Assembly: GCA_964569655.1 (NCBI GenBank)
Contig: CAZMTN010000002.1
Location: 70,197-134,196 of the forward strand
Origin: an uncultured Candidatus Saccharibacteria bacterium
Lineage (GTDB): Bacteria > Patescibacteriota > Minisyncoccia > Phycocordibacterales > Phycocordibacteraceae
Direction: 5' to 3'
DNA: 64,000 bases
This document shows, one piece after another, positions 14,295 to 33,603 of the stretch. Under the pieces are notes generated by a model. That model searched no databases. It was not told the DNA's origin and saw only the letters and a program-made list of their open reading frames with translations. Position numbers and translations under genes: made by a program. Position 1 is the stretch's first letter. Every line of letters begins with the position of its first letter.

Positions 14295-16046
14295 ATGCAG
14301 GTCTCCGAGTCAGAACTGAAAGAATTCATCCTCGATTCGGGACTGGTGTCCCGGAAGGAGGTCGAGGACGCCGCAGCGAAGGCCGCGGAAGGGAAGCAGT
14401 CAGTAGGCGACGTGCTCGTATCCAACGGCCAGCTCACGGCTGATGCTTTGCGCCGCATCAAGGCATACGTGCTCGGCATCCCGTACGTGAACCTGAAGGA
14501 CCGGAAGATCCCGCTCGACGTGCTCTCCATGATCCCGGAGCCGATCGCGCGCACGCACTCCATCATCGCGTTCAAGAAGACCGAGACCGAGCTCGAGGTC
14601 GCGATGCTCGATACCGAGGACCTGCCCGCGATCGACTCGGTGCGCAAGAAGACCGGCCTCAAGATCCTCCCGCGCCTCACCGATGACGCGTCCGTCAAGG
14701 AGGGGCTCATCCAATACCAGAAGTCGCTGAAAGAGGAGTTCGGCGATCTCATCTCGACCGAAGCCGGGAAGCTGAACCTCGTGAAGGACACAGACGGGGA
14801 AGAGGTGTCCGGCGACGAGCTCAAGAAGATGGCGGAGGACCTGCCGATCGTGCGCATCGTGGACACGCTGCTCCGCCACGCCATCATCCAGAAGGCGTCC
14901 GACATCCACATCGAGACCATGGAGACGGAAGTGGTGGTGCGCTACCGCATCGACGGCGTGCTCCACGACGCCATGACGCTCCCGCGCGCGGCGTCTGCCG
15001 GCATCATCGCCCGCATCAAGGTGCTTTCCTCCTTGAAGCTCGACGAGAAGCGCCTCCCGCAGGACGGGCGCTTCAAGATGGAGACCGAGACCGACAAGGT
15101 CTCCTTCCGCGTGTCGCTCTTGCCGACCTACTACGGCGAGAAGGTGGTCATGCGCCTCCTTCGCGAGAGCGGGGAAGGGTTCACGCTTGACGCCTTGGGC
15201 TTCCACGGCGAATCCCGGGAGCGCATCCACGACGCCACCCGCCAGACCACGGGCCTCATCCTCATCTCCGGCCCTACCGGTTCCGGTAAGACGACGACGC
15301 TCTACACCGTGCTCGATATCCTGAACACGCCGGACGTGAACATCTCCACCATCGAGGACCCGATCGAGTACCAGATGAAGCGCGTGAACCAGACGCAGGT
15401 GAATCCCGCGATCGGCTTCTCGTTCGTGAACGGCCTGCGCGCCCTCGTGCGCCAGGACCCGGACATCATCATGGTGGGAGAGATCCGCGACGGCGAGACA
15501 GCATCGCTCGCGATCAACGCGGCGCTCACCGGCCACTTGGTGCTCTCCACCATCCATACGAATTCCGCCGCCGGCGCCATCCCGCGCCTCATGGACATGG
15601 GCGTGGAGCCGTTCCTCCTCGTCTCGACCCTGAAGGTGATCATCGGCCAGCGCCTCGTGCGCCAGCTGTGCCCGGACAAGGAGGCATACACGCTCACGAA
15701 GGAGATGCGCGACAAGGTGATGGCGAGCGATAAGTTCGACGCCGTCATGAAGGCCTTGGTCGACGAGAAGCTGGTGAAGGCGGGCACCTCGCTCGACGAG
15801 CTCCCGTTCTACCGCCCGAAGCCGAACGCGGAATGCGAGGACGGCTACTCGGGACGCATCGGCATCCACGAGGTGCTGAAAGTCTCTTCCGCCCAGCGCG
15901 ACCTCATCCTCAAGGGCGCCACCATGGACCAGATCGAAGAGCAGGCCCGCAAGGAGAAGATGCTCACCATGCTCGAGGACGGCATCTACAAGGCGGCGAA
16001 GGGGACGACCTCCATCGAGGAGGTGCTGCGCGCCGTCACCGAATAA
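14295..16046 (+). CDS. pilB: Type IV pilus assembly ATPase PilB (GspE family)
   Basis: Walker A GPTGSGKTTT, Asp box, His box, and an N-terminal GspE_N-like domain. Confidence 0.9.
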   Translation: MQVSESELKEFILDSGLVSRKEVEDAAAKAAEGKQSVGDVLVSNGQLTADALRRIKAYVLGIPYVNLKDRKIPLDVLSMIPEPIARTHSIIAFKKTETELEVAMLDTEDLPAIDSVRKKTGLKILPRLTDDASVKEGLIQYQKSLKEEFGDLISTEAGKLNLVKDTDGEEVSGDELKKMAEDLPIVRIVDTLLRHAIIQKASDIHIETMETEVVVRYRIDGVLHDAMTLPRAASAGIIARIKVLSSLKLDEKRLPQDGRFKMETETDKVSFRVSLLPTYYGEKVVMRLLRESGEGFTLDALGFHGESRERIHDATRQTTGLILISGPTGSGKTTTLYTVLDILNTPDVNISTIEDPIEYQMKRVNQTQVNPAIGFSFVNGLRALVRQDPDIIMVGEIRDGETASLAINAALTGHLVLSTIHTNSAAGAIPRLMDMGVEPFLLVSTLKVIIGQRLVRQLCPDKEAYTLTKEMRDKVMASDKFDAVMKALVDEKLVKAGTSLDELPFYRPKPNAECEDGYSGRIGIHEVLKVSSAQRDLILKGATMDQIEEQARKEKMLTMLEDGIYKAAKGTTSIEEVLRAVTE

Positions 16047-16109
16047 CCCGGTTGTCTTTATATATAAGAGGAGTAGGGTGAGGCCAGAAGAACCACTTGG
16101 GAGGTACGT

Positions 16110-16445
16110 ATGAAGACGGAGTTACTGCTGTACCCGATCGTTTCGGCCCTGCTCGTGACCGTGGTGAACCTCGCATCCCTCTTGTTCAGCGGCGAACACG
16201 CGACGCTCGAACGTTTCTTCGGGATGGCGGTGCTCTTCGCGGGCATCGGCATCCTGGCCGCGCATCCAGCGGCATTCCTGTTCGCGCTCGTCACCGGCAT
16301 CGTCTTCGTCCTCGGCGTGATCGGCATGATCGGCGGCGGATGGTTCCCGGAGAGCCTGTACCTGTGCGTTCTCGCGCTCCTTGCAAGCGTCATCCTTTTC
16401 GTCGGCAGCATCAAGCGAGAACGGTACCCCTGGATCACTGCCTAG
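16110..16445 (+). CDS. Hypothetical small polytopic membrane protein (111 aa) between pilB and pilC
   Basis: GGGAGG lies 6 nt upstream of the ATG. There are 3-4 hydrophobic helices. The opposite-strand ORF 16058..16438 looks like an artefact. Confidence 0.5.
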   Translation: MKTELLLYPIVSALLVTVVNLASLLFSGEHATLERFFGMAVLFAGIGILAAHPAAFLFALVTGIVFVLGVIGMIGGGWFPESLYLCVLALLASVILFVGSIKRERYPWITA

Positions 16446-16446
16446 C

Positions 16447-16490
16447 GAAGCGCCCCCGTCTCAACACGAGACCGCGGGGCGCTTTTCTTT
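16447..16490 (+). terminator. Intra-operon terminator-like hairpin (possible attenuator) upstream of pilC
   Basis: AGCGCCCCCG-TCTCAACACGAGAC-CGCGGGGCGC followed by TTTTCTTT. Confidence 0.4.
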
Positions 16491-16509
16491 GCATGCTACA
16501 GTTAAACGC

Positions 16510-17721
16510 ATGAAATTCCGCGTCACGTTCCGCAGCAATGACGGCGCCAAAGCTACGCGCATCGTCTCCGCAGAGTCCCGCTTCGAGATCTACGAGCAGG
16601 CGAAGAAGGAAGGCGCGACGGTAGTGAACGTGCGCGAGAATAACAGCCTTTCGGACAAGCTGAAGTCTCTGAACATAAGCTTCGGCTCGGGCGTGAAGCA
16701 GACGCAGGTCATGCAGCTTGTGAAGAACCTCTCGGCCATGCTCAAGGCCGGCCTCTCCCTCTCCCGCGCCATGTCGGTGGTAGAGCGCCAGTCCCGGGGC
16801 GCGCTCAAGGAGATCTCGCATGACCTCTCCGCGCGCATCACCGCGGGCGCTTCCTTCCACGAAGCCCTCGGCGCGCACCCCGACGTATTCTCCCCGCTCC
16901 TCATCGCCATGGCCCGCTCGGGAGAGGAGTCCGGCACCCTCTCCGAGTCGCTCGCGAACGTGGGGTACCAGATGGAGCGCACGCAGGAGCTCATCCGGAA
17001 GGTGCGCGGCGCCATGATCTACCCGGTCGTGATCCTCGTCGCGATCGTCATCGTCGCGGTGCTCATGCTCATCTACGTGGTGCCCACCCTCACCCAGACC
17101 TTCGACGAGCTCGGCGTGGAGGTCCCGACGGCGACGAAGGTCATCACTGCGATCTCCGACTTCATGGCCGCCAATTCCATACTGGTGCTCATCCTCATGG
17201 GCATATTCTTCCTCGGCGCGTACCTGTTCGCACGGTCGAAGGCCGGGAGCTCGCTCATCCTCGCGGCCGCGCTCAAGCTGCCGGTCATCGGGGAACTCGT
17301 GCGCGAGACGTATGCGGCGCGCGCTGCCCGCACGCTCGCCTCCCTCATGACGAGCGGCGTGCCGCTCGTATCAGGACTCGCCATCGCGGAGCAGGTGGTA
17401 GGCGCGCCGCCGTTCGCGAAGGTGATCGCCGACGCGCGCGAAGGCGTGCGCAAGGGCGAGGCGCTCTCGGCCGCGTTCGCCGCGAATCCGAAGCTCTATC
17501 CCATCCTCATGAGCGACATGCTCGCGGTCGGCGAGGAAACGGGGAACACCGCGCAGATGCTCGAGCAGGTGGCGACCTTCTATGAGACCGACGTGGAGCA
17601 GCGCACCAAGGACCTCTCGACCATCATCGAGCCGGTGCTCATGCTCGTCATCGGCGCCGCGGTGGGCGTGTTCGCCGTCGCCATGATCGCGCCGATCTAC
17701 TCCATCTCCGATGCGATATAA
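16510..17721 (+). CDS. pilC: Type IV pilus inner-membrane platform protein PilC (GspF family)
   Basis: T2SSF-domain repeats (LSAMLKAGLSLSRAM ... GEETGNTAQMLEQVATFYE) and three transmembrane segments. The start is at MKFRVTF, after the hairpin. Confidence 0.85.
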   Translation: MKFRVTFRSNDGAKATRIVSAESRFEIYEQAKKEGATVVNVRENNSLSDKLKSLNISFGSGVKQTQVMQLVKNLSAMLKAGLSLSRAMSVVERQSRGALKEISHDLSARITAGASFHEALGAHPDVFSPLLIAMARSGEESGTLSESLANVGYQMERTQELIRKVRGAMIYPVVILVAIVIVAVLMLIYVVPTLTQTFDELGVEVPTATKVITAISDFMAANSILVLILMGIFFLGAYLFARSKAGSSLILAAALKLPVIGELVRETYAARAARTLASLMTSGVPLVSGLAIAEQVVGAPPFAKVIADAREGVRKGEALSAAFAANPKLYPILMSDMLAVGEETGNTAQMLEQVATFYETDVEQRTKDLSTIIEPVLMLVIGAAVGVFAVAMIAPIYSISDAI

Positions 17722-18100
17722 CGGCAGCAAGCGGGGATTCACGCTCATCGAAGCGGTCATCGCGCTCTTCCTCCTCGGGCTCATCCTCCTCATCTTCCAG
17801 GGGACGCTCCGGAACATGCCGCTCATCAAGTACGCGAAGAACCAGGATATCGCGCTCAAGATCGCGAGCAGCGAGCTCGAATCGCTCCGCGCCGGCGGCT
17901 ACGCGGCGCTCCCGGTGAGCGGCTCGTTCTCTGATCCGCTCATCGCAACGCTCCCGTCGGGCGCCGGAGGCGTCTCGGTGACAACGTATAACGCGGAGAC
18001 CAAGCAGGTGACCGTGACCGTGACCTGGCGCGAAGCGGGGAAGGAGACCGACTCCTCGGTAACGCTCACGACGCTCATGACGGAGATCGGAGGGTTATAG
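17711..18100 (+). CDS. Type IV pilin-like protein (prepilin N-terminal cleavage/methylation domain)
   Basis: KRGFTLIEAVIALFLLGLIL is the class III signal peptide. Confidence 0.75.
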   Translation: MRYNGSKRGFTLIEAVIALFLLGLILLIFQGTLRNMPLIKYAKNQDIALKIASSELESLRAGGYAALPVSGSFSDPLIATLPSGAGGVSVTTYNAETKQVTVTVTWREAGKETDSSVTLTTLMTEIGGL

Positions 18101-18107
18101 TAGAGCT

Positions 18108-18650
18108 ATGCGCGGATTCACCCTCCTCGAGACCCTCATCGTCATAGCGCTCACGGTCGCCATACTCGTCGCGATCACCAATTTCTACAGCGGCTTCAAC
18201 CGCTTCTATGCATACCAGAACCTCTCGGCGAACAATGCCACGCTCACCGGCCGCGCTATCGCGGAGATAGACTCCACCGTGCTCCCGGCGTCGAGCGTGC
18301 TCTCGTCCCGCACGTTCACCATCGGGACCTATGCTTCGGGCGCGTCCGTGCTGGTGCTCGAGCTCCCCTCGACGACGAGCTCAGGCGGCATCATAAGCGG
18401 CACCTATGACTACGCCGTCTTCTACGTGAGCAACGGCACGCTCTACAAGCGCCTCGAGGCCGCCGGGTCGAGCAGCCGGACCACCGCCACCGAGCAGCTC
18501 GTCTCGGGCGTGACCTCGCTCACGTTCTCGTATGACTCCGGGGATTTCGGGAGCGTGACCAGAGTGAACACCGACCTCACGACGCAGAGCACGCACCGCG
18601 GCGGCACCGTGAATTCGCACCTCACGAGCGAAGCGTACCTCCGCAACTGA
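18108..18650 (+). CDS. Type IV pilin-like protein (prepilin N-terminal domain)
   Basis: MRGFTLLETLIVIALTVAIL. Confidence 0.75.
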   Translation: MRGFTLLETLIVIALTVAILVAITNFYSGFNRFYAYQNLSANNATLTGRAIAEIDSTVLPASSVLSSRTFTIGTYASGASVLVLELPSTTSSGGIISGTYDYAVFYVSNGTLYKRLEAAGSSSRTTATEQLVSGVTSLTFSYDSGDFGSVTRVNTDLTTQSTHRGGTVNSHLTSEAYLRN

Positions 18651-18651
18651 T

Positions 18652-20448
18652 ATGGATACCCGACCCAACGGCTACGTGCTGCTGCTCGGGATGATCTTCT
18701 TCGGCGTGTTCCTCAGCATGAGCGCCGGGCTCACGAGCTACATCACGCTCAACGCGCGGGCAGAGCGCTCGGCAGTGGCGTCGAAGCAGGCGCTCGCTTT
18801 GGCCGAGGCCGGCATCGATAAGGCGGCGTACGAGCTCAATCACAACAGCAATTACTCGGGAGAATCGAACACCGCGCTCGGCGCCGGCAGAGTGACCATC
18901 GCCGTCACCACCATCGACGCGAGCACCAAGCGCATCAGCGCGACGGCGTACGTGCCGAACGCAAGCAATCCGATCGCCATGAAGACCGCGCGCGCCAATA
19001 TCTCGATCAGCGCGGAGAATATCTCCTTCAATTACGGCGTCCAGGCAGGCGCGGGCGGATTCTTGATGACCGGCGGGTCGACTATCAACGGCAACGTCTA
19101 CTCGAACGGCGACATCAATGCGACCACCGGCGTGCGCATCACCGGCTCCGCGACCGCGGCGAACCCGCCGGCGGTTGCCGCGGATCAATCCAATAATTCG
19201 CCGACGCCCATCGGCACCTGCACCGGCTCCACCTGCCAGCACTTCGGCAATGCCGCAGCTTCGCAGGACTTCGCCCAGAGCTTCCAGATCTCTTCCGCGA
19301 CCGCCTTCGATAGCGTGCGCTTCTATATAAAGAAGACCGGCTCTCCTTCGAACGCCACCGTGCGCATCGTCGCGGACAACGCCGGCTCCCCGAGCAACAC
19401 CACGCTCCTCTCGGCGACGCTCCCGGCGTCTTCCGTCACGACGAGCTTCGGCTGGGTGAGCGTCGCGCTCCCGTCGACGCCCGTCCTCTCCGACGGCACC
19501 ACGTACTGGCTGGTCATCGACGCGGGGACAAGCACGAATAACTACTATTCCATCGGCACCAATACGGCATACGGCAGCGGCGTGGGGAAGATCGGGCAGT
19601 ACAACGGCACCTGGAACAATACTTCTCCGTCCCGCGACGGCTATTTCCAGATCTATCTCGGCGGCGGGACATCCATGATCGGCGGCAACAATTACACGAC
19701 GGGCGTCTACGTAGGCACGAACGCTTCCGATCTCGCATGGGCCAATCACGTGCAGGGCGCCACCGTCTCGGGTCCGCTCTACTGCAAGACCGGATCGTAC
19801 ACGAACAAGTCCTGCGACACTTCGAGACCGGACCCGTCACCGGCAGCCATGCCGATATCCGACAGCAACATCGACGAGTGGAAGGCAGATGCGGAAGCAG
19901 GGAGCATCCACAACGGCGACTACGCCGTAGGCTGGCAGGGCGCGACCATCGGCCCCATGAAGATCAACGGCAACCTCACGATCGGCGGCGGGGGCATACT
20001 CACCGTATCCGGCACCCTCTGGGTGACCGGGAACATCACGGTCGGCGGCGGGGGCCAGGTGCGCCTCGCGTCAAGCTACGGCACCAACGACGGCGCTATC
20101 ATCACGGACGGCATCGTGACCGTCGGCGGCGGCGCGAACTTCGCCGGGTCCGGACAAGCGGGCAGCTACCCGTTCCTCATCTCGACGAGCGCCTGCCCGA
20201 ACGCGGCCGGCTGCAGCGGCAACGAGGCGATAGACCTCTCGGGCGGCGCCGGGACCGTGGCGCTCGTGGCGCAGGACGGCACCGTCCGCATCAACGGCGG
20301 ATCGAGCCTCAAGGCCGTGACCGGGCGGCAGATCGTCATGGAGGGCGGCGCCACCCTCTACTACGACAGCGGGCTCATCAGCACCAATTTCTCCTCGGGA
20401 CCGGGCGGCTCATGGGAATTCGTCCCGGGCACATACGTCATCGACTAG
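18652..20448 (+). CDS. PilX-like large minor pilin / pilus-associated protein (598 aa) with beta-helix-like Gly/Asn-rich repeats
   Basis: The N-terminus NGYVLLLGMIFFGVFL...AERSAVASKQALALAEAGIDKA follows the PilX_N pattern. The C-terminus carries NGNLTIGGGGILTVSGTLWVTGNITVGGGG repeats. Confidence 0.6.
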   Translation: MDTRPNGYVLLLGMIFFGVFLSMSAGLTSYITLNARAERSAVASKQALALAEAGIDKAAYELNHNSNYSGESNTALGAGRVTIAVTTIDASTKRISATAYVPNASNPIAMKTARANISISAENISFNYGVQAGAGGFLMTGGSTINGNVYSNGDINATTGVRITGSATAANPPAVAADQSNNSPTPIGTCTGSTCQHFGNAAASQDFAQSFQISSATAFDSVRFYIKKTGSPSNATVRIVADNAGSPSNTTLLSATLPASSVTTSFGWVSVALPSTPVLSDGTTYWLVIDAGTSTNNYYSIGTNTAYGSGVGKIGQYNGTWNNTSPSRDGYFQIYLGGGTSMIGGNNYTTGVYVGTNASDLAWANHVQGATVSGPLYCKTGSYTNKSCDTSRPDPSPAAMPISDSNIDEWKADAEAGSIHNGDYAVGWQGATIGPMKINGNLTIGGGGILTVSGTLWVTGNITVGGGGQVRLASSYGTNDGAIITDGIVTVGGGANFAGSGQAGSYPFLISTSACPNAAGCSGNEAIDLSGGAGTVALVAQDGTVRINGGSSLKAVTGRQIVMEGGATLYYDSGLISTNFSSGPGGSWEFVPGTYVID

Positions 20449-20472
20449 CGGGGAACTGGTATCATTAGGGAT

Positions 20473-21216
20473 ATGCTCATTGTCGCCAACTGGAAGGCGT
20501 ACGTCGAAGACGTCGCCAAGGCTAAGAAGCTGTTCTCGCTCTCGAAGCGGCTCTCAAAGAACACGAAGCACAAGCTGGTGCTCTGCCCGGCCGCACCCCA
20601 TCTCGGCATCCTCGCCGCAAACAACACGTCGAAGGTAGCTCTCGGGGCGCAGGACGTGTCGCTCTCGACCGGCGGCGCCGCGACCGGAGAGGTCACGGCG
20701 AAGATGCTCGGGAAGCTCGAGGTCTCGTATGCGCTCGTCGGGCACTCGGAGCGCCGCGCGAAGGGAGAGACGGACGCTGAGGTCTCGGAGAAGATCCAGC
20801 ACCTCCTGGCCCAGGACGTGACGCCCATCCTCTGCATCGGGGAGCGGGAACGGGATGCGGGCGCAGAATACCTCTCTTTCGTACGGGCGCAAATCGCGGC
20901 CGCGCTTACGCCGCTCACGCAGAAGGAGCGCATGGAGCTCGTCATCGCGTACGAGCCCGTCTGGGCGATAGGGAAGAGCGCAGCGGACGCGCTCCCCGAG
21001 CATGAGCTCATGGAGATGGTGCTGTACATACGCAAAGTGCTCGGCGAGTATCTGCCTGGGAAGGCGCCGCTCAAGACCTCGATCCTCTACGGCGGATCCG
21101 CGGAACCCGGCAACGCGCGCAGCCTTGCGGGCGGCACGGGCATCGACGGATTCCTCATCGGGCACGCGTCGGTCGACGCGATGATGTTCGAAGAGCTCGT
21201 CGAAGCCGTCTCATAG
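20473..21216 (+). CDS. tpiA: Triosephosphate isomerase
   Basis: ANWK, GHSERR, AYEPVWAIG and ILYGGS contain the catalytic Lys/His/Glu context. Confidence 0.9.
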   Translation: MLIVANWKAYVEDVAKAKKLFSLSKRLSKNTKHKLVLCPAAPHLGILAANNTSKVALGAQDVSLSTGGAATGEVTAKMLGKLEVSYALVGHSERRAKGETDAEVSEKIQHLLAQDVTPILCIGERERDAGAEYLSFVRAQIAAALTPLTQKERMELVIAYEPVWAIGKSAADALPEHELMEMVLYIRKVLGEYLPGKAPLKTSILYGGSAEPGNARSLAGGTGIDGFLIGHASVDAMMFEELVEAVS

Positions 21217-22350
21217 ATGAGAAGCGTACGGGACATCAAGATACTCGAGGATATCCCGGTGCTGGTCCGCGCCTCGCTCAATGTGGAGATAGCGGACGGG
21301 AAGGTGACCAACGCCTTCCGCATGAAGGAGGCGCTCCCGACCATCGAGTACCTCCGGAGCCGGCGCGCGCGCATCATCCTTATCGGGCACATCACGGGCA
21401 CGGGAACCGAGACCTTGAGGCCGGTCGCGGAAGCGATGAAGCAGTTCATCCCGGATATCTCGTTCTGTCCCGTGCATACGGGGGCCGAAGCGCGCGCAGC
21501 CGTGCGCGGCCTCATGCCGGGGCAGGTGGTGATGCTCGAGAACCTGCGGCGCAGCAAGGGGGAAGGGCAGAACGACAGTGCCTTCGCGCATGCGGTGGCC
21601 GAGCTCGCGGACGTGTTCGTGCAGGACTGCTTCGACGTCCTCCACCGCGAGCACGCGTCGGTGGTGGGCATCCCGCAGATACTCCCGTCCTATGCGGGGC
21701 TCCTCGTCGAGAAGGAAGTCGCAGCGCTCACGAAGGCGCTCTCGCCTAAGGCGCCGTCCCTCGCCATCGTCGGCGGGGCGAAATTCTCCACCAAGGAGCC
21801 AGTGCTCCGGAAGCTCCTCTCTTTATATACGAACGTGTACGTGGGCGGGGCGCTCGGGAACGATTTCGTGAAGGCGCGCGGGTACGACGTAGGGAAATCA
21901 TTGGTATCGAGCGCGGATCCGAAGAAAATCAAGGAGATGGCGGGGAATCCGCGCATCGTCCTCTCAGTGGACGCGCATGTGGCGGCGCCTGGAGCGAAGA
22001 GAGATGAATCGAGAATTGCCGCGATCGATGACGTGCACCCGGATGAAGCCATTCTCGATGACGGCCCCGAGAGCGTGGAGAAGATCGCTGCGCTCCTGAA
22101 GAGCGCGAAGTCCGTGCTCTGGAACGGTCCGCTCGGGAATTACGAGAACGGATTCGTGGACGGCACCGAGGGCGTCGCACGTGCTATCGCCGCATCAGGC
22201 GCCTATGCGACCGTAGGAGGCGGGGACACCGTCGCCGCGATCGAGAAGCTCGGCGTCGCACATAAGTTCGCCTTCATCTCCACCGCCGGAGGCGCCATGC
22301 TCGAGTTCCTCTCGAAGGGAACGCTGCCGGGACTGCGCGCGCTCGGCTAG
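21217..22350 (+). CDS. pgk: Phosphoglycerate kinase
   Basis: VMLENLR, IVGGAKFSTK and VGGGDTVAA are PGK signature segments. The gene is adjacent to tpiA. Confidence 0.9.
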   Translation: MRSVRDIKILEDIPVLVRASLNVEIADGKVTNAFRMKEALPTIEYLRSRRARIILIGHITGTGTETLRPVAEAMKQFIPDISFCPVHTGAEARAAVRGLMPGQVVMLENLRRSKGEGQNDSAFAHAVAELADVFVQDCFDVLHREHASVVGIPQILPSYAGLLVEKEVAALTKALSPKAPSLAIVGGAKFSTKEPVLRKLLSLYTNVYVGGALGNDFVKARGYDVGKSLVSSADPKKIKEMAGNPRIVLSVDAHVAAPGAKRDESRIAAIDDVHPDEAILDDGPESVEKIAALLKSAKSVLWNGPLGNYENGFVDGTEGVARAIAASGAYATVGGGDTVAAIEKLGVAHKFAFISTAGGAMLEFLSKGTLPGLRALG

Positions 22351-22353
22351 CGT

Positions 22354-23142
22354 ATGAACGCTTCGCCCAAAAGGATACTGGTTGCGGGCGCGCTCCTGTG
22401 TGCTGTCCTGCTCGTTTTCGGTTGGCTGAGCGGCATAGAGCCGCGCGAGACGGATCCCGCTCTCATGCGGTTCTCGAACACCCAGGACTGGGACCCGACA
22501 CTGCTCAGGCACCTTCCCGGATCACGTACGCCCGAGAAGCGTGCGGTGACCGATGCGTACGTGAGCGCGATCGAGCTTCCGCCGCCGCCCGCAAATATGT
22601 CCGAGACGACCGCCGCTGAGTTGCAGACGCTTCATGCATACATAGAGCTGCGCGATGAGACGCGCGCAGATATCGAAGCGGAGCATCGTGGATTCGACGG
22701 CTTCCGGTTCGGCACCTATCGCCCATGGGCAGGGGAGGCGACGCAGACACGTACATTGCTTGATCACGCGCTCGGTGAGTATGCGCCGGTGATCTTCGCG
22801 TTCAAGGAACGGTTCGACCGCGTGCGCCCAAGCTATCTCGATCAGACGATCACCACTATGTTCCCTATACCGGGGCATCCAGCCTATCCGAGCGGGCACG
22901 CGGCGCAGGTGTATCTCATCGCCGGAATCCTCGCAGAGCTCGATCCTGAGAACGCGCAGGCATACTTCGCGGATGCCGTGCGTATTGCGCGCAATCGGGA
23001 GATCGCGGGAGTGCATTACCCGAGCGATAGCAGCGCGGGGGCCACGCTCGCCGCGCAATTTCTCCCGCTCTATCTTGAGACCGAGGAAGCGAGGATGCTG
23101 CTAGAGGCAGCGCGCACTGAGTGGGAGCGCCACCGGAATTAG
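22354..23142 (+). CDS. PAP2-superfamily phosphatase (class A acid phosphatase-like), membrane-anchored
   Basis: KERFDRVRPS, PSGH and ARNREIAGVHYPSD give the KxxxxxxRP / PSGH / SRxxxxxHxxxD tripartite motif. There is an N-terminal hydrophobic anchor. Confidence 0.7.
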   Translation: MNASPKRILVAGALLCAVLLVFGWLSGIEPRETDPALMRFSNTQDWDPTLLRHLPGSRTPEKRAVTDAYVSAIELPPPPANMSETTAAELQTLHAYIELRDETRADIEAEHRGFDGFRFGTYRPWAGEATQTRTLLDHALGEYAPVIFAFKERFDRVRPSYLDQTITTMFPIPGHPAYPSGHAAQVYLIAGILAELDPENAQAYFADAVRIARNREIAGVHYPSDSSAGATLAAQFLPLYLETEEARMLLEAARTEWERHRN

Positions 23143-23151
23143 AACGCCGTG

Positions 23152-23961
23152 TTAGTTTTTCGTATTTTCGGCTATTAAGTCCCGTAGTAATTCGTTCACA
23201 TCGATAGCTCTTGAGTTCTCCTGCATGAACTCAAACATCTTGAGAATCATTCTTTGGATTCCAGAGTTCTGAATCTCCAGGATCAGCTCTTCCTTAAGCG
23301 CCATCAGGTACAAGGAGTCCTTGAATACCCAGACTTGGCCGCCATGCTGAAAATATTTCTTATCCAATACGTTTACGCGTGCGGTCCGTCCCTCGAAATC
23401 ACGAGCCCAGTCTACGCCGAGCAGCCTGGTCTGTTCCTCGAACCAGCCTTCCGATGATACCGTCTCGGCGATGATGCGGTTCTTCTTTATGTCACGGTTT
23501 ACCTTGTTGGTCTCAGTCGGGGAGAACATGGCGTTCCACCCGGCTGTCGAGTTTCCTCCTTGGAAACTGTAGAAACGCTCATACTTATGCTCCGCGAACA
23601 GGTTGAGCATAAGCTTCTTGATAGCTTCAGCGCCTCGATGGATAGTCACTATCGAATCTGAGCGACCGTGAATGACTTCGCTGCCTTCGGGAATCTTAAG
23701 GAGTGAGCGCTTGAGATCGTATACAGAGCGGTCGATATCCTGTTCGTCGTTCAGGCGCCAGTGCTTGCGTCCATTGGTAATGTGCGAGGCCGCCAAACCG
23801 CGCTTCCGGAAGTTCTGGAGGGTAGCATAGACGGCCGAGCGGGAGACTCCCGTCTCCCGGGCTATCTTGAGAGGCGTATCTGCGCCATCCCGGAGGGCTA
23901 AAAGCGCCTTCTTCTCCTTGTTTGATAGCCCGAGCACCTGGAGGTCATCGTGTAGGGCCAT
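23152..23961 (-). CDS. TrmB-family transcriptional regulator
   Basis: N-terminal HTH LGLSNKEKKALLALRDGADTPLKIARETGVSRSAVYATLQNFRKRGL is TrmB-type. It sits in an island of visibly lower GC. Confidence 0.65.
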   Translation of the reverse strand: MALHDDLQVLGLSNKEKKALLALRDGADTPLKIARETGVSRSAVYATLQNFRKRGLAASHITNGRKHWRLNDEQDIDRSVYDLKRSLLKIPEGSEVIHGRSDSIVTIHRGAEAIKKLMLNLFAEHKYERFYSFQGGNSTAGWNAMFSPTETNKVNRDIKKNRIIAETVSSEGWFEEQTRLLGVDWARDFEGRTARVNVLDKKYFQHGGQVWVFKDSLYLMALKEELILEIQNSGIQRMILKMFEFMQENSRAIDVNELLRDLIAENTKN

Positions 23962-24173
23962 GAGGCTAGACTAGCAGAAACAGTCCTGTTTGTCCAGTTT
24001 TATAGACATAGTATGTGGATAAAAATACCCTTTATTTACTTTATATTATAGCCCTTGTTAGGTTTATGAAATACTAAAATATACTGTCAATGGTTCTAGG
24101 CGTATAGTTATTGCAGATCAAGCGCACATTGATAGGGCATCCCGCCCATCAAACCAACCTGAGGAGAAGTATC

Positions 24174-24842
24174 ATGGAAAGCATCGAAAAGCGGATTATC
24201 TCGGCTCATGACTGGGTCAGGACTGACGGCCGGGACTTTACGCCTCGCGGGCATAAGCCGGTGGGCGAAAGCTCAACCAGCGTAGATAAGATCTACGTCC
24301 CGTTCCTCAATACCACCTATGTGCTCGTGTTCGAAAGTTCATGGGCAACCATAGGCGGAACGAGGCAAGATGCCGTGCTCTATGCTTATGACCATCGCAG
24401 TGGCAACCGCCGTAAGGTGGATAGCCATACGATCCTCAACGGTCGTGATCCGCTGTCGAGTTTTTACCCGACAAAGATCCGAGCGGTCATAAGCTTTGTG
24501 ACGAAAGACGTACCCGCCTTTGACCACCCGTGTCCAACGGGTGAGGGGGAAATCTTTCGAGGTTGCTCTTTTGAAAGGAAGAGCAACGTACGTGTCCGTA
24601 TCTCCATGTGCAGGGAGCAGGAGGCTTCTTGCGAGATACGGGGCACGTATGCGATAGCCCACTTCAAGTCCGTCCGCCGGGGGTACTACGCGCCAGGATG
24701 GGAAGAAGAGAGCGTCGCCTCACAGCAATGGGAAACTGGTAAAGTCGAGAGCTCTGTTCTCACGAAGAGAAACATCTGTCGATTCTACAAGAAGTACCAT
24801 GCGGAGCTCCCGGCAATCGCGGGTGAGATCGGAGCGGGATGA
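24174..24842 (+). CDS. Hypothetical protein (222 aa)
   Basis: GAGGAG lies 7 nt upstream of the ATG, divergent from the TrmB gene across a very AT-rich intergenic region. A terminator follows. Confidence 0.5.
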   Translation: MESIEKRIISAHDWVRTDGRDFTPRGHKPVGESSTSVDKIYVPFLNTTYVLVFESSWATIGGTRQDAVLYAYDHRSGNRRKVDSHTILNGRDPLSSFYPTKIRAVISFVTKDVPAFDHPCPTGEGEIFRGCSFERKSNVRVRISMCREQEASCEIRGTYAIAHFKSVRRGYYAPGWEEESVASQQWETGKVESSVLTKRNICRFYKKYHAELPAIAGEIGAG

Positions 24843-24911
24843 AAACCCGCTTGGCAACAGAACCAAAAATCAAACTGCCGCGCTGGGCAGGATAAAGATA
24901 GGGCGCAAACT

Positions 24912-24950
24912 GACCGCCGGCATGAAAATGCTGGCGGTTTTCTTATTTCG
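24912..24950 (+). terminator. Intrinsic terminator
   Basis: ACCGCCGGCA-TGAAAA-TGCTGGCGGT followed by TTTTCTTATTT. Confidence 0.5.
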
Positions 24951-25407
24951 ATTCACCGCGGATTTGCTCTGCAAGAGCCGCGAGTACGGCATCGTCCGCG
25001 CGGGCGCCGTCATGCGAGGAGATATAGCCCTCGTACTGGGTGAAGTACTTGTCGCTCTTTGATTCGATCGGGCGCCATTGCTCCATATTCGCCGTGCCGT
25101 GCATCGGGAAGAGTTTCGCGTGCACGTGGTCCACGCCGAAGCCCTCGAACACCATCGCGCACCTGCCGACGTCCGGGAGCGCCTTGTCGAGGAGATTCGC
25201 CACCTGCTTGGTCGCGAGCATGAGGCTCGTGAGGACCTCGTCCGGGAGCGCGAAGGCGTAGCTCGGGTGGTGCTCCTTAGGGATGACTACCGTCACGCCC
25301 TCGGTATTCGGGAATATGGAGAGGAATGCGAGGTGATTATCGTCTTCCCAGACCGTATGAGACGGGCTCTCCTTCGAGACAATTGCGCAGAAAATGCAGT
25401 CTTTCAT
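24943..25407 (-). CDS. HIT (histidine triad) family nucleotide hydrolase/transferase
   Basis: CIFCAIV at the N-terminus and DHVHAKLFP, which is histidine-triad-like. Confidence 0.7.
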   Translation of the reverse strand: MKDCIFCAIVSKESPSHTVWEDDNHLAFLSIFPNTEGVTVVIPKEHHPSYAFALPDEVLTSLMLATKQVANLLDKALPDVGRCAMVFEGFGVDHVHAKLFPMHGTANMEQWRPIESKSDKYFTQYEGYISSHDGARADDAVLAALAEQIRGESK

Positions 25408-25450
25408 AGGGAAAGCATACCGTAATGGCGCATTTTGATACAATCGATAG

Positions 25451-27160
25451 ATGCCTGAGTTCCATGACCCCCTAGATACGGAGATCCGTACCGCGCTCGC
25501 GGAATACGACGATCTCACGGCGGCGCTCCTGGCGCGCCGGGGCATCACCACGCGCGAAGCGGCAGCCGCATTCCTCGATCCTTCCTATGAGGAGCACATC
25601 CACGACCCGCTCCTCCTCAAGAACATGCCCGAGGCGGCAGAACGCCTCGCGAAGGCTATTCGCGAGCAGGAGCACATCGCGGTTTGGAGCGACTACGACT
25701 GCGACGGCATCCCGGGCGGCGTCATCCTGCATGACTTCTTGAAGAAAGCCGGAGCGAATTTCGAGAACTACATCCCGCACCGCCACGAGGAAGGATACGG
25801 CGTGAACGAGATGGGCATCGAGAAGCTGGCCAAAGGAGGCGCGACGCTGGTTATCACGGTGGATTCGGGCATCACGGACATCGAGGCGGTCGCGCACGCG
25901 AGGAAGCTCGGCATGGACGTGATCGTCACCGATCACCACCTTCCAGGGAAAGAGCTGCCGGACGCCATCGTCGTCGATCACAAGCAGGAAGGGGAGACGT
26001 ACCCGTTCCGGGAGCTCTGCGGCGCAGCCATGGCGTGGAAGCTCGTGTGCGCGACGCTCGCCGTAGACCCCACACTCCGCGAGAAGGTGCCCGTCGGCTG
26101 GGAGAAGTGGCTCCTTGATATGGCCGGCCTCGCGACCATCGCCGACATGATGCCGCTCACCGGCGAGAACCGCGTCATCGTGAAGTACGGCCTCATGGTG
26201 CTGCGCAAATCCCCGCGCGTCGGGCTCCAGAAGCTCTGCAAGGTCATGCGGGTAAACCAGCGGTTCATCAAGGAGGACGATGTCGCGTTCATGCTCGCGC
26301 CCCGCGTGAACGCGGCAAGCCGCATGGGAGACCCGCGCGACGCGTTCACGCTCTTCACGACTTCCGACGAAGCAGAGGCGGAAGCCCTCGCGAAGAAGCT
26401 CGAAGCCGCCAACCGCGGACGACGCTCCGCAGCTGCCGCTATCACGCGAGGCGTGCACGAGAAGATCGAAGAGCGCCTCGAGCGAGGACCTCTGTCTTCG
26501 GTCATCGCGGTGGGGGACCCGGACTGGAAGCCCGCGCTTTTGGGCCTTGTCGCGAGCAACATCGCGGAGGAGTACGAGCGCCCGGTGTTCCTCTGGGGGC
26601 GCGAGGCTAACCAGACCGTGAAGGGATCCTGCCGTTCGTACGGGAACGTGCACATGGTGGAGCTCATGACCGCGGCGAAGGAGGCGTTCGTCGAATTCGG
26701 CGGGCACGCCTATTCGGGCGGCTACACGCTGCACGACGATAAGGTCTTCTTCCTCGAGGAGCACCTTTCGAACGCGCTCGCCTCGATGCCTGCACAGGAA
26801 GCGGACGAGATGGCCAAGGCGGACGTGGAGATCAGCTGCGATGAGGCGACCCTCGCGCTACTCGCGAAGCTCTCCCGCCTCGAGCCCTTCGGCATGAATA
26901 ATCCGAAGCCCGTCGTGCTGCTGCGGAGCGTCTTGCTGGACGACGTATCCTGGTTCGGGAAGAGCAGCGAGCATCTGAAGCTTTCCATACATCGCTCCTT
27001 CGATACCATCGAAGCGATCGCGTTCTTCGCGAAGCGCGAGCTCGGGAAGAAGCTCCACCTCCTCGAGAAGGGAAAGGAGGTGCATCTGCTCGTAAACCTC
27101 GAGCGGGACCAGTTCTCTAAGAAGCGCGTGCCGCGCCTGCGCATCCTCTCGATCGCCTAG
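25451..27160 (+). CDS. recJ: Single-stranded-DNA-specific exonuclease RecJ
   Basis: DHH motifs (VWSDYDCDGI, VDSGI, VTDHH) and a DHHA1 domain. Confidence 0.9.
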   Translation: MPEFHDPLDTEIRTALAEYDDLTAALLARRGITTREAAAAFLDPSYEEHIHDPLLLKNMPEAAERLAKAIREQEHIAVWSDYDCDGIPGGVILHDFLKKAGANFENYIPHRHEEGYGVNEMGIEKLAKGGATLVITVDSGITDIEAVAHARKLGMDVIVTDHHLPGKELPDAIVVDHKQEGETYPFRELCGAAMAWKLVCATLAVDPTLREKVPVGWEKWLLDMAGLATIADMMPLTGENRVIVKYGLMVLRKSPRVGLQKLCKVMRVNQRFIKEDDVAFMLAPRVNAASRMGDPRDAFTLFTTSDEAEAEALAKKLEAANRGRRSAAAAITRGVHEKIEERLERGPLSSVIAVGDPDWKPALLGLVASNIAEEYERPVFLWGREANQTVKGSCRSYGNVHMVELMTAAKEAFVEFGGHAYSGGYTLHDDKVFFLEEHLSNALASMPAQEADEMAKADVEISCDEATLALLAKLSRLEPFGMNNPKPVVLLRSVLLDDVSWFGKSSEHLKLSIHRSFDTIEAIAFFAKRELGKKLHLLEKGKEVHLLVNLERDQFSKKRVPRLRILSIA

Positions 27161-27174
27161 GGTATACTCCGCGT

Positions 27175-27591
27175 ATGAAATATCTGATCCAAGGCGACGG
27201 CGGCGCTCGAGGCAACCCGGGTCCCGCCGGCTCAGGCGCCGTGATCTACGACGAGACGGGCCAGGTCGTGGGGGAGGTCTCGAAGTTCCTCGGCCACGCG
27301 ACCAATAACGTCGCGGAATACACCGCGGTCCTCTCCGCGCTCGAGCTCCTCCTCTCCATGATAGGGAATGAAGCGAAATCAACGCACGTCGCGGTCGAGA
27401 TGGACAGCAAGCTCGTCGTCGAGCAGATGTCCGGGAAGTGGAAGATAAAGCACCCGGGACTGAAGCCGCTCGCCGCTCGCACCGGAGAACTCTCGCGCTC
27501 CTTCGCCTCGGTTTCATACAAGCACATCCCCCGCGAGAAGAACGGCGTCGCGGACGCGCTCGCCAACCAGGCGATGGACCGAGGAGCGTAG
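27175..27591 (+). CDS. rnhA: Ribonuclease H (RNase HI-type)
   Basis: DGGARGNPGPAGSGAVI...NNVAEYTAVLSALE...D carries the DEDD catalytic context of the RNase H fold. Confidence 0.8.
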   Translation: MKYLIQGDGGARGNPGPAGSGAVIYDETGQVVGEVSKFLGHATNNVAEYTAVLSALELLLSMIGNEAKSTHVAVEMDSKLVVEQMSGKWKIKHPGLKPLAARTGELSRSFASVSYKHIPREKNGVADALANQAMDRGA

Positions 27592-27594
27592 CCG

Positions 27595-29061
27595 ATGGAC
27601 TATTTTTACGCCGCTGCGTTCGGATTCGCTTCCGGAGTCATGGCGCGGTCGCTCATACTGTTCGGGTGGCCAACAATACTGTTTCCGCTCCTTATCGCCA
27701 TCGTGTGCTTCATCCTCTACCGCCTCGAGCGGCATTCTTTTTATGCGTTCGCTTCGGCGTTCCTCATAGCAGCGAGCATCGGTTCCGCGCGCACGCATCT
27801 GGCGCCGCAGCAATTGCCCGAAGCGTTCGTGCCGTACGTGGACACGGCAGTCTCCTTCGAAGGGAAGATCGTGCGCGACCCCGACATCCGAGACACCAAC
27901 CAGCACGTCGCGGTACGGATCGAAGAGGGAGGAGAAGAGACCATCGTGCTCGCGTATGCGCCCCTGTTTCCCGAGCTCGAATACGGAGAGACGGTCATTG
28001 TGTCGGGAACGTTATTGAGGCCCGAACCCTTCGATACGGACGGAGGCCGCGTCTTCCGCTACGACCGCTTCCTCGCGAAGGACGGCATCTTCGCGGTGGT
28101 CCCGCGGGCGCAGGTGGATTCGATGGCGCCGCCGGAAGGGTTAGGTTCCTGGGTATTCGGAACGTTGTACGCTGCGAAGCACCGGTTCACGGATGGCTTG
28201 CGCGCCGCGCTACCGGAGCCTTCCTCCGCGCTCGCCGAGGGGCTCCTCACGGGAGGGAAGCAAGGGCTCGGGGAAGAACTCATCGACGCGTTCACGATCG
28301 CGGGGCTCATCCAGATTGTGGTCCTGTCCGGGTACAACGTGATGATCGTCGCGGAGGCGATACTGCGGTCCCTCTCATTCCTGCCGAAGCGCTTGGCGCT
28401 TTCTGCGGCGGGCGTGGGCATCATCGCGTTCGTGGTAGCCGCAGGATCGGGTTCCGCTGCCGTACGCGCAGGCGCCATGGCGTGCATCGCGCTCTTCGCG
28501 CGCGCCACCGGCCGCACCTACGACGCCCTGCGCGGACTCCTCCTCGCCTTGGTGCTGCTTGCGCTCTGGAATCCGCTCCTTCTCGCGTACGATCCCGGGT
28601 TCCAGCTCTCCTTCGCGGCGACACTGGGCCTCATCCTTGGTACGCCGATCGTGGAGCCGTGGTTGAAGTTCATAAGAAACGACTTGTTGCGCGACGTGAC
28701 GGCGACCACCATCGCGGCGCAAATTGCGGTATTGCCGCTACTCCTCTATCTGACGGGAAACCTGTCGCTCGTATCCGTACTCGCGAACGTACTCGTGCTC
28801 CCCATGATCCCGCTCGCGATGGCGCTCGGCTTCATTGCCGGGCTCGCCGGGATGGCGTCAGCGATGATGGCGCCTCTCATAGGACTGCCGGCGCACCTCG
28901 TGCTCGCGTATATCGTATTAGTAGGGAAGTACGCGGCGTCCGTACCGCTCGCGCATGTCATCATCCCCGCGTTCCCGTTCGGAGCGGTTATCGTCGCGTA
29001 CGCGCTTATGTGGAGAGCGGCAGCGCTTTCTGGAAGCGGGCTTCGCACACGCTCCAGTTGA
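27595..29061 (+). CDS. comEC: ComEC/Rec2 DNA-internalisation channel protein (membrane competence domain only)
   Basis: DUF4131-like N-terminus plus a Competence domain (LLTGGKQGLGEELIDAFTIAGLIQIVVLSGYNVMIV), with multiple transmembrane segments. No metallo-beta-lactamase domain is present in this ORF. Confidence 0.8.
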   Translation: MDYFYAAAFGFASGVMARSLILFGWPTILFPLLIAIVCFILYRLERHSFYAFASAFLIAASIGSARTHLAPQQLPEAFVPYVDTAVSFEGKIVRDPDIRDTNQHVAVRIEEGGEETIVLAYAPLFPELEYGETVIVSGTLLRPEPFDTDGGRVFRYDRFLAKDGIFAVVPRAQVDSMAPPEGLGSWVFGTLYAAKHRFTDGLRAALPEPSSALAEGLLTGGKQGLGEELIDAFTIAGLIQIVVLSGYNVMIVAEAILRSLSFLPKRLALSAAGVGIIAFVVAAGSGSAAVRAGAMACIALFARATGRTYDALRGLLLALVLLALWNPLLLAYDPGFQLSFAATLGLILGTPIVEPWLKFIRNDLLRDVTATTIAAQIAVLPLLLYLTGNLSLVSVLANVLVLPMIPLAMALGFIAGLAGMASAMMAPLIGLPAHLVLAYIVLVGKYAASVPLAHVIIPAFPFGAVIVAYALMWRAAALSGSGLRTRSS

Positions 29062-32256: not shown

Positions 32257-32880
32257 ATGAGCATGGTTAATCTGTCCAGGCCACTAGAGGCATTTGGATT
32301 TGTTGAACGCGAATCAAAGAACGGGAAGCAGTTGTCCTTTAAATGTGGCCGAGATTTTCTCTATTACGCTCTCAATTTTTACTTTCCTGAGAAATTCAAC
32401 GCGACGGCCATCAGCCCTAGCGAAATTGATCGCAGGAAGCTCTTTGGAATAGTAGTTCCTAAATATCTTGCGTGGACCCAGCTGCAATTTCTGCGCATGC
32501 CGTACCTTCTTAAAAAGAATGGGTTAGCGCTTTCTATCAATAATAGGAAGATATCCTCATATCTGCGCTTTGTTTTTTGGAATCTGTTTTCTCGTATTTC
32601 ATACGAAGACGCTATGCAACAGATAGAACAGTGCGTTCGAGAGAACAAGGCATGCGCCATTGATGTGCCCGTTAGTAAGAAACTGCTCAACCTGCTTGAT
32701 CACGTCATGTTTGTATATGGGTACGATGATGAATATCTATACGTATTCGACACTCTCACCGTGCCCTACGTGCGCTATGAACGTCTACGCCATGATGTTC
32801 ACTATTACCGCCTCTCAAAGAAAATAATTGAGGGAAACTGGTCTATTTTCGGAAGAGTCTGGAAGGTCAGTAGGACTTAA
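32257..32880 (+). CDS. Hypothetical protein (207 aa) in the low-GC island; possibly a papain-like (C39/BtrH-like) cysteine peptidase
   Basis: Candidate Cys (FKCGRDFLYYALN) and His (LLDHVMFVYGYDDEYLYVFD) in an arrangement reminiscent of C39-like peptidases. Weak. Confidence 0.4.
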   Translation: MSMVNLSRPLEAFGFVERESKNGKQLSFKCGRDFLYYALNFYFPEKFNATAISPSEIDRRKLFGIVVPKYLAWTQLQFLRMPYLLKKNGLALSINNRKISSYLRFVFWNLFSRISYEDAMQQIEQCVRENKACAIDVPVSKKLLNLLDHVMFVYGYDDEYLYVFDTLTVPYVRYERLRHDVHYYRLSKKIIEGNWSIFGRVWKVSRT

Positions 32881-32884
32881 TAGC

Positions 32885-32912
32885 GGTTCCCACGTCGTAC
32901 CACAGCCCCAGC
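32885..32912 (+). repeat. Island repeat copy 1 (GGTTCCCACGTCGTACCACAGCCCCAGC)
   Basis: Read in the sequence directly after the stop of the 32257 gene, preceded by ACTTAATAGCGG. Confidence 0.6.
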
Positions 32913-32960
32913 TAACAAAAAGCTCCCACCCCAACTAAGAGGTGAGAGCTTGCAAGTGTG

Positions 32961-33503
32961 CTATCCGCTTTTTATCATGTTGCCGATTCGTCCGATAAAG
33001 CCCTGCTTCTTACCGCGGCTTTGAGAGACTTTCAAATCGGTTCGTGGGACGCGGTATTCGTATTTTTGATGCAGCATGGCGATTTCCACGTCGGGGTAAA
33101 CACGAACCCACGTTCTTCGCTGAATCTTCCGCTCTCTTTCGAAGCAGGTTTTCCCGTCTTCCACAGACCCCATTGGAAGAAAGTCGGATTCGGTCAGGAC
33201 GAGGTTGTGCGTGATTGTTTCCTTGCCAAGGTCTTCATCGAAATACAACTTTCCTAACTCCATGGTGGTGTCCCAATCATAGAATTTATCAACAGATGTT
33301 GGCGGGAGAGCCGGCATGAGCGCCAACATGAATTCTTGAAGTTTGGGGGCCGCATAGATGCCGGTGTTTGGCGCGACGATGAAATCAACGGTGTGCGTCC
33401 AGTAGCCGTGGGGCTCCGGGAAATACGTCCGCTCATCAACGGCAACGATTTGAATATTTGTATTGACTTGTAATGAACTGCGCACGATAGCGAGTTTGGA
33501 CAT
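32961..33503 (-). CDS. Hypothetical protein (180 aa), low-GC island
   Basis: Clear ORF in an AT-rich context; no motif. Confidence 0.45.
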   Translation of the reverse strand: MSKLAIVRSSLQVNTNIQIVAVDERTYFPEPHGYWTHTVDFIVAPNTGIYAAPKLQEFMLALMPALPPTSVDKFYDWDTTMELGKLYFDEDLGKETITHNLVLTESDFLPMGSVEDGKTCFERERKIQRRTWVRVYPDVEIAMLHQKYEYRVPRTDLKVSQSRGKKQGFIGRIGNMIKSG

Positions 33504-33574
33504 TTCCTATGTCTCCTCTGGTTTCAGCTGAAAAAACTATAGCACGTGCAGTCAGATTTTCAATGCTTCAGAAG

Positions 33575-33603
33575 GAGTCCCGTGTCGTACCGCAGCCCCA
33601 GCA
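33575..33603 (+). repeat. Island repeat copy 2 (GAGTCCCGTGTCGTACCGCAGCCCCAGC)
   Basis: About 23 of 28 positions are identical to copy 1. It is intergenic. Confidence 0.55.

Follow-up and report, generated by a model that had tools for sequence, protein, structure and literature searches.

The stretch considered here comprises 64,000 nucleotides (nt) of contig CAZMTN010000002.1 (GenBank assembly GCA_964569655.1) from an uncultured Candidatus Saccharibacteria bacterium, and is referred to below as the window. Within it lies a patch of low GC content that consists of a gene for a TrmB-family regulator (REG), a very AT-rich spacer and a divergently transcribed gene for an orphan protein (UNK). 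A sequence-only reading had proposed that this pair is a horizontally acquired regulatory cassette. To our knowledge, the Patescibacteria have very few transcription factors and their gene regulation is almost uncharted. No paper linking TrmB with the Patescibacteria or the Candidate Phyla Radiation (CPR) was found in the literature searched. Here we describe the two proteins, the control region between them and their relatives at homologous loci (numbered with the prefix L), and weigh the possible histories of the patch.

Locus organization

The following features were recognised, with coordinates given in the window:

23152..23961, minus strand: REG, a 269-amino-acid (aa) TrmB-family regulator of TrmBL2-like architecture (Pfam, AlphaFold2 model, Foldseek)
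23968..23996, minus strand: predicted REG promoter, with -35 TGGACA (23991-23996), a 17-nt spacer, a TGC-extended -10 TAGTCT (23968-23973) and 6 nt to the ATG
23991..24008, no strand: dyad TGTC-N10-GACA overlapping the REG -35, a candidate REG operator
24080..24108, plus strand: predicted divergent promoter, with -35 TATACT (24080-24085), a 17-nt spacer and -10 TATAGT (24103-24108)
24114..24173, plus strand: conserved 5' leader of the divergent transcript, with a start near GCAG, a CATTGA box, a GC hairpin and a Shine-Dalgarno sequence
24174..24842, plus strand: UNK, a 222-aa orphan predicted to be all-beta (eight long strands) with a C-terminal helix
24833..24890, plus strand: 3' non-coding element accompanying UNK (alignment with the 3' flanks of UNK genes)
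24912..24949, plus strand: intrinsic terminator of the UNK transcript, with a 12-bp stem (24912-24939) and a T-run (terminator scan)

The start of UNK is supported by the alignment of its homologues and by the Shine-Dalgarno sequence GAGGAG 7 nt upstream. The flanking genes are those named by the sequence-only reading; PAP2 and HIT were identified by Pfam, and pgk and recJ by homology to annotated neighbours at locus L008, which also confirmed tpi. REG and PAP2 are convergent with a 9-bp gap, and the terminator scan found no terminator between them. The description of the patch as bounded by terminators holds at its right end only, where the UNK terminator lies.

The regulator

REG has an N-terminal winged helix (residues 7-74), a long helix (73-88) and a PLD-like C-terminal domain. 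Pfam TrmB (PF01978) matches residues 7-57 with 32.9 bits against a gathering score of 25.6, HTH_29 also passes, and all Pfam matches are confined to the winged helix. The AlphaFold2 model, built from 33 homologues, has a predicted local distance difference test score of 88 and places helices at residues 14-24, 30-37 and 41-53, followed by a beta wing at 57-70; the winged helix resembles those of MarR, ZitR and AdcR. The best Foldseek matches in the PDB were TrmBL2 (5bpi/5bpd, E 3e-11) and TrmB (3qph, E 1e-7), with about 270 columns aligned, and the C-terminal domain alone matched PLD3 and BJ-TSA-9. Because these structural matches run over the full length, REG can be regarded as a complete member of the TrmB family, of the short, TrmBL2-like type that lacks the sugar-binding subdomain. 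Both architectures by which the family is recognised are present, namely the N-terminal winged helix-turn-helix (HTH) and its combination with a coiled coil or long helix and a PLD-like core, and the earlier assignment to TrmB is borne out by the Pfam and Foldseek results. The sugar-sensing feature of TrmB proper is absent, as REG ends at residue 269 with no TrmB_C-type Pfam match, and its gene neighbours include none for sugar transport or metabolism. The HxK(x)4D (HKD) nuclease motif was not found when the sequence of the PLD-like domain was read directly.

TrmBL2 of Thermococcus and Pyrococcus (PDB 5BPD, 5BPI, 5BOX, 5BQT) is the closest known likeness. It is of similar size (about 264 aa against 269), has the winged helix, long helix and PLD-like domain in the same order, likewise lacks the sugar-binding subdomain, and gives a weak sequence-profile match in addition to the best full-length structural match. 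However, its identity to REG is 13-15% and the global TM-score is 0.37-0.40, and therefore the domains are arranged differently in the two proteins. Moreover, TrmBL2 is characterised in its PDB entry as an abundant chromatin protein of archaea, whereas REG is a bacterial (CPR) protein whose mRNA is predicted to be leaderless. TrmB of Pyrococcus furiosus and Thermococcus litoralis (3QPH, PF01978) shares the N-terminal winged helix and the structural match given above, but has 335 residues, among them an additional C-terminal subdomain for sugar binding that is missing from REG.

The REG family comprises 42 members at E<=1e-3 among 5.8 billion proteins, all of them from Patescibacteria where the source names the organism. 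Among GTDB species genomes, 25 REG loci were found, under the labels Kaiser-, Taylor-, Nomura- and Azambacteria and Paceibacterota, and the genomes that carry REG often have several TrmB-like paralogues. In the window no TrmB-like gene other than REG was found. REG2 proteins (243-248 aa) form a second subfamily, which is homologous to REG over the full length (hhalign 97%, 17% identity). The sequence-only reading had taken TrmB-type regulators as mostly archaeal or sugar-responsive; since the family here is patescibacterial, spread across the Paceibacteria, and paralogues are common, the TrmB label says nothing about an archaeal origin. The homologue search that it had proposed as a check of taxonomic origin returned, wherever an organism is named, patescibacterial relatives of REG and no archaeal source. 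Neither the label nor the dip in GC content is evidence of inter-domain transfer at this locus.

The control region

Alignment of about 20 REG loci revealed a common upstream layout, ATGTCnAAAAnACTTGACAGAA-N10-TTTTGCTAcACT-N6/7-ATG, which reads as an A-tract, a -35 element, a 17-nt spacer, a TGn-extended -10 element and a start codon at the expected transcription start. The REG mRNA is predicted to be leaderless because the start codon sits where transcription should begin. An nhmmer model of the REG promoter, which like the other leave-one-out model was built without the window sequence, had a single match in the window, at 24011-23965 (E 4.9e-5). The dyad TGTC-N10-GACA occurs once in the 64 kb; its right half is the REG -35, and its left half, ATGTC, is kept in nearly all REG loci.

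On the opposite strand, 94 bp further, lies the predicted divergent sigma-70-type promoter. Its -35 falls within the conserved element T(T/A)TACTGTCAATG (24080-24092), and the family-specific element TTTACTGTCAATG lies across the -35 and the spacer. Of the 23 upstream regions listed, 18 have TTGACAGTAAAA at the fixed position -128 relative to the REG ATG. Its other strand reads TTTTACTGTCAATGcc, which sets a -35 (TTTACT) at a constant distance of exactly 17 nt from a TAcAcT -10. The leave-one-out model of the divergent side again had one match in the window, 24082-24139 (E 2.7e-7), and in 452 kb of retrieved DNA the nhmmer model of the control region matched once for each REG gene and nowhere else. 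No further copies of the distal element or of the leader box, which could have indicated a regulon, were present in the window. The spacer also contains an inverted pair, CTGTCAATG (24084-24092) and CATTGATAG (24127-24135). A generic sigma-70 scan of the spacer found no promoter, and both promoters were recognised solely through conservation across loci. On this comparison the AT-rich spacer is a conserved, putative bidirectional promoter of bacterial type, and what had been described as TATA-like elements are bacterial -10, -35 and A-tract promoter elements.

The dedicated, conserved promoter region suggests that REG is a local and specific regulator, unlike TrmBL2, and the locus-specific promoter elements argue for specific binding by REG over a sequence-independent coating of the DNA.

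The divergent transcript is predicted to begin with a leader whose plan recurs across 22 loci (17 aligned and five more listed): a start near a conserved CAG, the CATTGA box, a GC hairpin of 4-6 bp with a 3-6-nt loop, and a Shine-Dalgarno sequence. In the window, the box lies at 24119-24133, the hairpin GGGC-ATCCC-GCCC at 24135-24147 and the Shine-Dalgarno sequence GAGGAG at 24161-24166. Among 11 distinct hairpin stems, pairing is 100% and compensatory changes occur at four of four pairs, a score reached by none of 500 shuffles; the pairs were counted on length-equalised stems because MAFFT gave no structural alignment of such short hairpins. Rfam gave no match in the window at the gathering score and none in 23900-24260 at E<=10. 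At REG2 loci the leaderless promoter, the divergent promoter, the box and the hairpin are of the same kind. The leader of the window resembles the REG type up to the hairpin and follows the UNK loci from the Shine-Dalgarno sequence onward. At L049 an unusually long, structured-looking leader, with no Rfam match at the gathering score, precedes the first open reading frame (ORF) on the divergent strand about 500 nt upstream of a REG2-type gene.

The orphan partner

UNK had been described as a protein of no known family, and this stands: it had no match in Pfam, NCBIfam, PADLOC, PHROGs or PDB sequences, matched no known fold, and has no signal peptide evident from its sequence. Nine close homologues share 45-56% identity with it, and profile searching across 1.84 billion cluster representatives added just seven further real distant clusters, for a total of about 16. 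Two strong-looking profile matches (P0055 and P0059) are eukaryotic Sushi-repeat and G-protein-coupled receptor proteins and were judged spurious. No relatives were found in viral contigs or in Joint Genome Institute (JGI) metagenome contigs. Conservation is strong in the N-terminal 110 residues and in a C-terminal motif, WTTGEVESSVLTKRNISRFY, while the middle is variable; D38, P43, T48, S55, G61 and G62 are invariant. UNK is thus a new orphan family.

UNK is rare, and its distribution is patchy. Wherever the upstream DNA is readable, its divergent neighbour is a TrmB-like gene (9/9 distinct contexts), of the REG2 type at L001, L003, L004, L006/L007, L039, L040 and L041 and of the REG type in the window and at L051. 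UNK loci stand in several neighbourhoods, beside a CCA-adding enzyme, NusA, PAP2/HIT and others. Because these neighbourhoods differ while the TrmB-like neighbour is constant, UNK is accessory and evolutionarily mobile, yet tied to this class of regulator. The pair at L051 (113-2699) is an independent one, with a REG of 269 aa that is 58% identical and an UNK that is 34% identical to those of the window; another TrmB-like gene (256 aa) follows immediately after it.

UNK is accompanied by a conserved 3' non-coding element, which in the window consists of a hairpin spanning the stop codon (24833-24838/24846-24851), TTGGCAACAGAA (24851-24862) and a second hairpin (24875-24890). The element was aligned at L001 (6610-6760), L003 (6694-6850), L040 (1631-1790), L041 (1281-1460) and L042 (760-900). 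In full it contains the stop-codon hairpin, TTGGCAACAGAA, internal hairpins, GCAAAACTATCA and CTCTATTGAG, and the copy in the window is shortened. Rfam had no match to the element in the window, and at UNK loci elsewhere it returned only tRNAs.

Variable genes behind the control region

UNK stands behind the REG leader only in the window and at L051. At six other loci (L017, L019, L020, L022, L024 and L026) the leader is followed by an ORF of 23-44 aa (..AN[TAS]GSAGKGRK..) and then a radical-SAM enzyme. At L010 and L032 the radical-SAM enzyme comes directly after the leader, which brings the radical-SAM loci to eight; a similar short ORF follows the enzyme at L010, and none was seen at L032. 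An Ocnus-like protein occupies the position at L015 and orphans occupy it at L014 and L025; a SWIM-like gene with MazEF is also among the genes behind REG. REG2 loci from JGI metagenomes have other small orphans there. In both the REG and the REG2 families, homology between loci breaks off past the leader hairpin and before the following gene's start codon. On these comparisons the regulator and its putative bidirectional control region are the conserved part of the locus, and the gene behind the leader differs between genomes. The sets of peptide and radical-SAM genes are candidate modified-peptide operons in Paceibacteria. At L023 (4944-5828) a transposase of the insertion sequence (IS) type, with an rve integrase core and HTH_23, is inserted behind the leader, directly beside the REG promoter region.

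Divergently transcribed, autoregulated local repressors of the MarR/IclR type are a familiar arrangement. The locus resembles them in having the regulator back to back with its presumed target and conserved sites over both core promoters. It differs in that the effector domain of REG is PLD-like and not a MarR dimer fold, and in that the linked target varies between genomes while the control region is unchanged. The layout of REG and UNK is the familiar one of a local regulator that is divergent and probably autoregulated; less ordinary is that a sharply conserved control region has different genes behind it across genomes.

Base composition and synteny

In 400-nt windows the GC content falls to 0.46-0.55 at about 23000-24800, against 0.60-0.67 in the flanks. 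Taken as a whole, REG, spacer and UNK (23152-24842) have a GC content of 0.513, compared with 0.618 elsewhere in the window, and rank in the lowest 3% of equal-sized windows. The spacer (23962-24173, 212 bp) has a GC content of 0.377, matched by only 0.08% of 212-nt windows. GC content at third codon positions (GC3) is 0.66 in REG and 0.64 in UNK, against a weighted mean of 0.81 (standard deviation 0.10) in the 36 other ORFs, a shift of about -1.5 to -1.7 standard deviations that is genuine and not extreme. First and second positions of REG are likewise low (GC1 0.55, GC2 0.35). The sharp drop relative to the flanks and the extreme AT-richness of the intergenic region, as first noted from the sequence alone, were thus both reproduced by computation, and in overall GC and in GC3 the composition is atypical in the way expected of an island.

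Yet REG has a syntenic counterpart. Its closest homologue, at L008/L014, is 67% identical and occupies the pgk-recJ interval in the same orientation as in the window, in the order T2SSF...tpi-pgk-[86 aa, YafQ-like]-REG-[77 aa, SWIM-like 250 aa, MazEF, NUDIX]-HIT-recJ. The flanking proteins are 52% (PGK), 52% (TIM) and 64% (RecJ) identical. REG is the sole gene of the interval that the two loci have in common; PAP2 and UNK are absent from L008/L014 and HIT is just 31% identical; the HIT protein of the window is closer to that of L030 (45%) than to the one at the same position in L014. The other REG loci have no flanking genes in common with the window. The sequence-only reading had expected an acquired segment to be missing from close relatives. 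In the one syntenic relative this is so for UNK, while REG is present in the same pgk...recJ slot; conservation of both genes in synteny had been named as evidence against acquisition, and for one of the two, REG, it was found in the closest relative.

Across 20 loci the GC3 of REG follows that of its host (slope 0.83, r=0.84), and the value in the window lies within the trend. REG averages 0.04 below its neighbours, and the deficit reaches -0.15 in L024 and L030, equal to that of the window. No tRNA was found in the 64 kb, no integrase or transposase gene in 20000-28500, and only short, chance-level matches when flanking direct or inverted repeats were sought as insertion scars. The proposal of a horizontally acquired regulatory cassette is therefore borne out in part: the composition is atypical and UNK is accessory, but REG is syntenic, its GC3 follows the host, and marks of mobility are missing. 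We read REG and its control region as residents of this lineage and the pgk-recJ interval as a hotspot of variation, in which UNK, and probably PAP2 and HIT too, are less-ameliorated accessory DNA.

Proposed explanation

We lean towards the view that the patch is a regulator-target module common in Paceibacteria, with REG resident and UNK an exchangeable accessory target, and no cassette from a foreign domain. Sequence and comparison directly support the architecture of REG, the two predicted promoters, the predicted leaderless start, the conserved elements at their fixed spacing, the hairpin of the leader and the constant pairing of UNK with TrmB-like genes. In the proposed mechanism, a sigma-70-type promoter with its -35 inside the TGTC-N10-GACA dyad would yield a leaderless REG mRNA, and a second sigma-70-type promoter on the other strand would drive UNK through the leader with its CATTGA box, GC hairpin and Shine-Dalgarno sequence. 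REG would bind TTGACAG/CATTGAC-type sites that bracket both core promoters, for which the candidates in the window are the dyad at 23991-24008 and the inverted pair CTGTCAATG/CATTGATAG. It would thereby repress its own gene and UNK, and we consider repression of both promoters the most likely mode of action; the binding of a ligand to the PLD-like C-terminal domain may release it. UNK would be an accessory cytoplasmic protein and a swappable target, and the low GC content may reflect a variable pgk-recJ hotspot with less-ameliorated accessory DNA.

The locus offers a regulator-operator-target set made up of a leaderless TrmB-like regulator, conserved promoter elements including a putative operator, a covarying leader hairpin and a lineage-specific target. 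Because the same control region drives peptide and radical-SAM operons in relatives, the REG family may control modified-peptide or other symbiosis-relevant accessory functions.

Several points weigh against this explanation. The synteny rests on one relative, L008/L014. The GC3 values of REG and UNK are nearly equal (0.66 and 0.64) and well under 0.81, and this shared deficit, together with the independent pair at L051, leaves room for a joint acquisition or replacement from a relative of lower GC content. The proposed operators overlap -35-like hexamers (TTGACA), so that the conservation of these sites could reflect promoter function alone. As to the leader, the hairpins were picked by eye before covariation was counted and one loop base was removed from five rows; RNAalifold on the raw MAFFT alignment of the leaders gave no structure, and the leader of the window is no more stable than its shuffles (z=-0.67).

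Alternative explanations

It is possible, though on balance unlikely, that REG, spacer and UNK entered together and recently from a bacterium of lower GC content, most plausibly another Paceibacterium, perhaps with replacement of a resident REG allele. The depressed GC3 common to both genes, and a spacer that is the most AT-rich 212 nt in the window, are what such an import would leave; all known relatives of REG and UNK are in genomes of 33-56% GC, L051 provides a second instance of the unit, and there are other low-GC islands in this genome. However, REG occupies the pgk...recJ position in the nearest relative and is conserved there like the housekeeping flanks, its GC3 deficit elsewhere averages 0.04 and in two hosts is as large as here, the edges lack an integrase, tRNA, IS element or direct repeat, and nothing points outside the Patescibacteria.

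Rather improbable in our judgement is a platform for the exchange of cargo, in which regulator, promoter and leader are fixed, genes are repeatedly installed by recombination at or just past the leader hairpin, and UNK brings its own 3' element, loosely comparable to the cassette site of an integron though with no known integrase. In this case the TrmB-like regulators of Paceibacteria, with their putative bidirectional promoter and hairpin leader, would serve as fixed expression sites for exchanged accessory genes (orphans, peptide and radical-SAM sets), and the leader hairpin or the UNK 3' element may mark the exchange point. If this is true, ultra-small symbiotic bacteria would have a means, not described before, of putting variable genes under one sensor. 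The end of homology between the hairpin and the next start codon in both families, the occurrence of UNK behind two regulator subfamilies and its conserved, structured 3' flank are in agreement with such exchange. Yet no recombinase is linked to these loci and a repeated boundary sequence was not found; the loci compared are from distant species, among which ordinary rearrangement could look alike, and the conserved 3' flank is known from a comparison among UNK loci alone. Integrons are expression platforms with a fixed promoter and variable genes. The likeness to them is organisational only, in that a fixed promoter is followed by variable genes, and the REG locus differs in that it has just one cargo unit and lacks an integrase and attI/attC.

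A still less probable account is that the dip is purely compositional and without any special history, produced by an AT-rich promoter region between two proteins rich in Lys, Asn and Ile. The conserved promoter elements do account for the AT-richness of the spacer, and GC1 and GC2 of REG are also low, but GC3, which is free of amino-acid constraint, is low in both genes, and UNK is patchy in its distribution.

A toxin-antitoxin or anti-phage defence module made up of the two genes is very improbable: the equivalent variable region of L008 holds MazEF and a YafQ-like gene and the REG winged helix is weakly like the HTH domains of CasR/Csa3, but UNK has no PADLOC or PHROG match, REG matches via its HTH alone and is paired elsewhere with biosynthetic-type (radical-SAM) genes, and its PLD-like domain lacks the HxK(x)4D nuclease motif.

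Neighbouring genes and other low-GC regions

Upstream of tpi-pgk, at 14295-20448, lies a type IV pilus/type II secretion system (T2SS)-like set with a 583-aa T2SSE-like protein, a 446-aa T2SSF-like protein, pseudopilin-like ORFs and a 598-aa Gly/Thr-rich protein; from the T2SSF-like gene onward (16381-20448) it is syntenic with L014. On the other side of the patch, the longest HIT ORF (24943-25551, 202 aa) overlaps the start of recJ by 100 nt on the opposite strand. The true HIT start is probably an internal Met near 25410, because the HIT domain begins near residue 48-60.

The patch is not the sole low-GC island in the window. A third one, at 62106-62603, is similar and corresponds to a GNAT acetyltransferase gene with a GC content of 0.50. 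The region 32257-34845 is larger and lower in GC (0.43-0.50, GC3 0.43-0.62) and contains a 204-aa class-I SAM methyltransferase, two orphans of 207 aa and 180 aa, and small membrane-like ORFs; this makes three islands, of which it is a better candidate for acquired DNA than the patch of REG and UNK.

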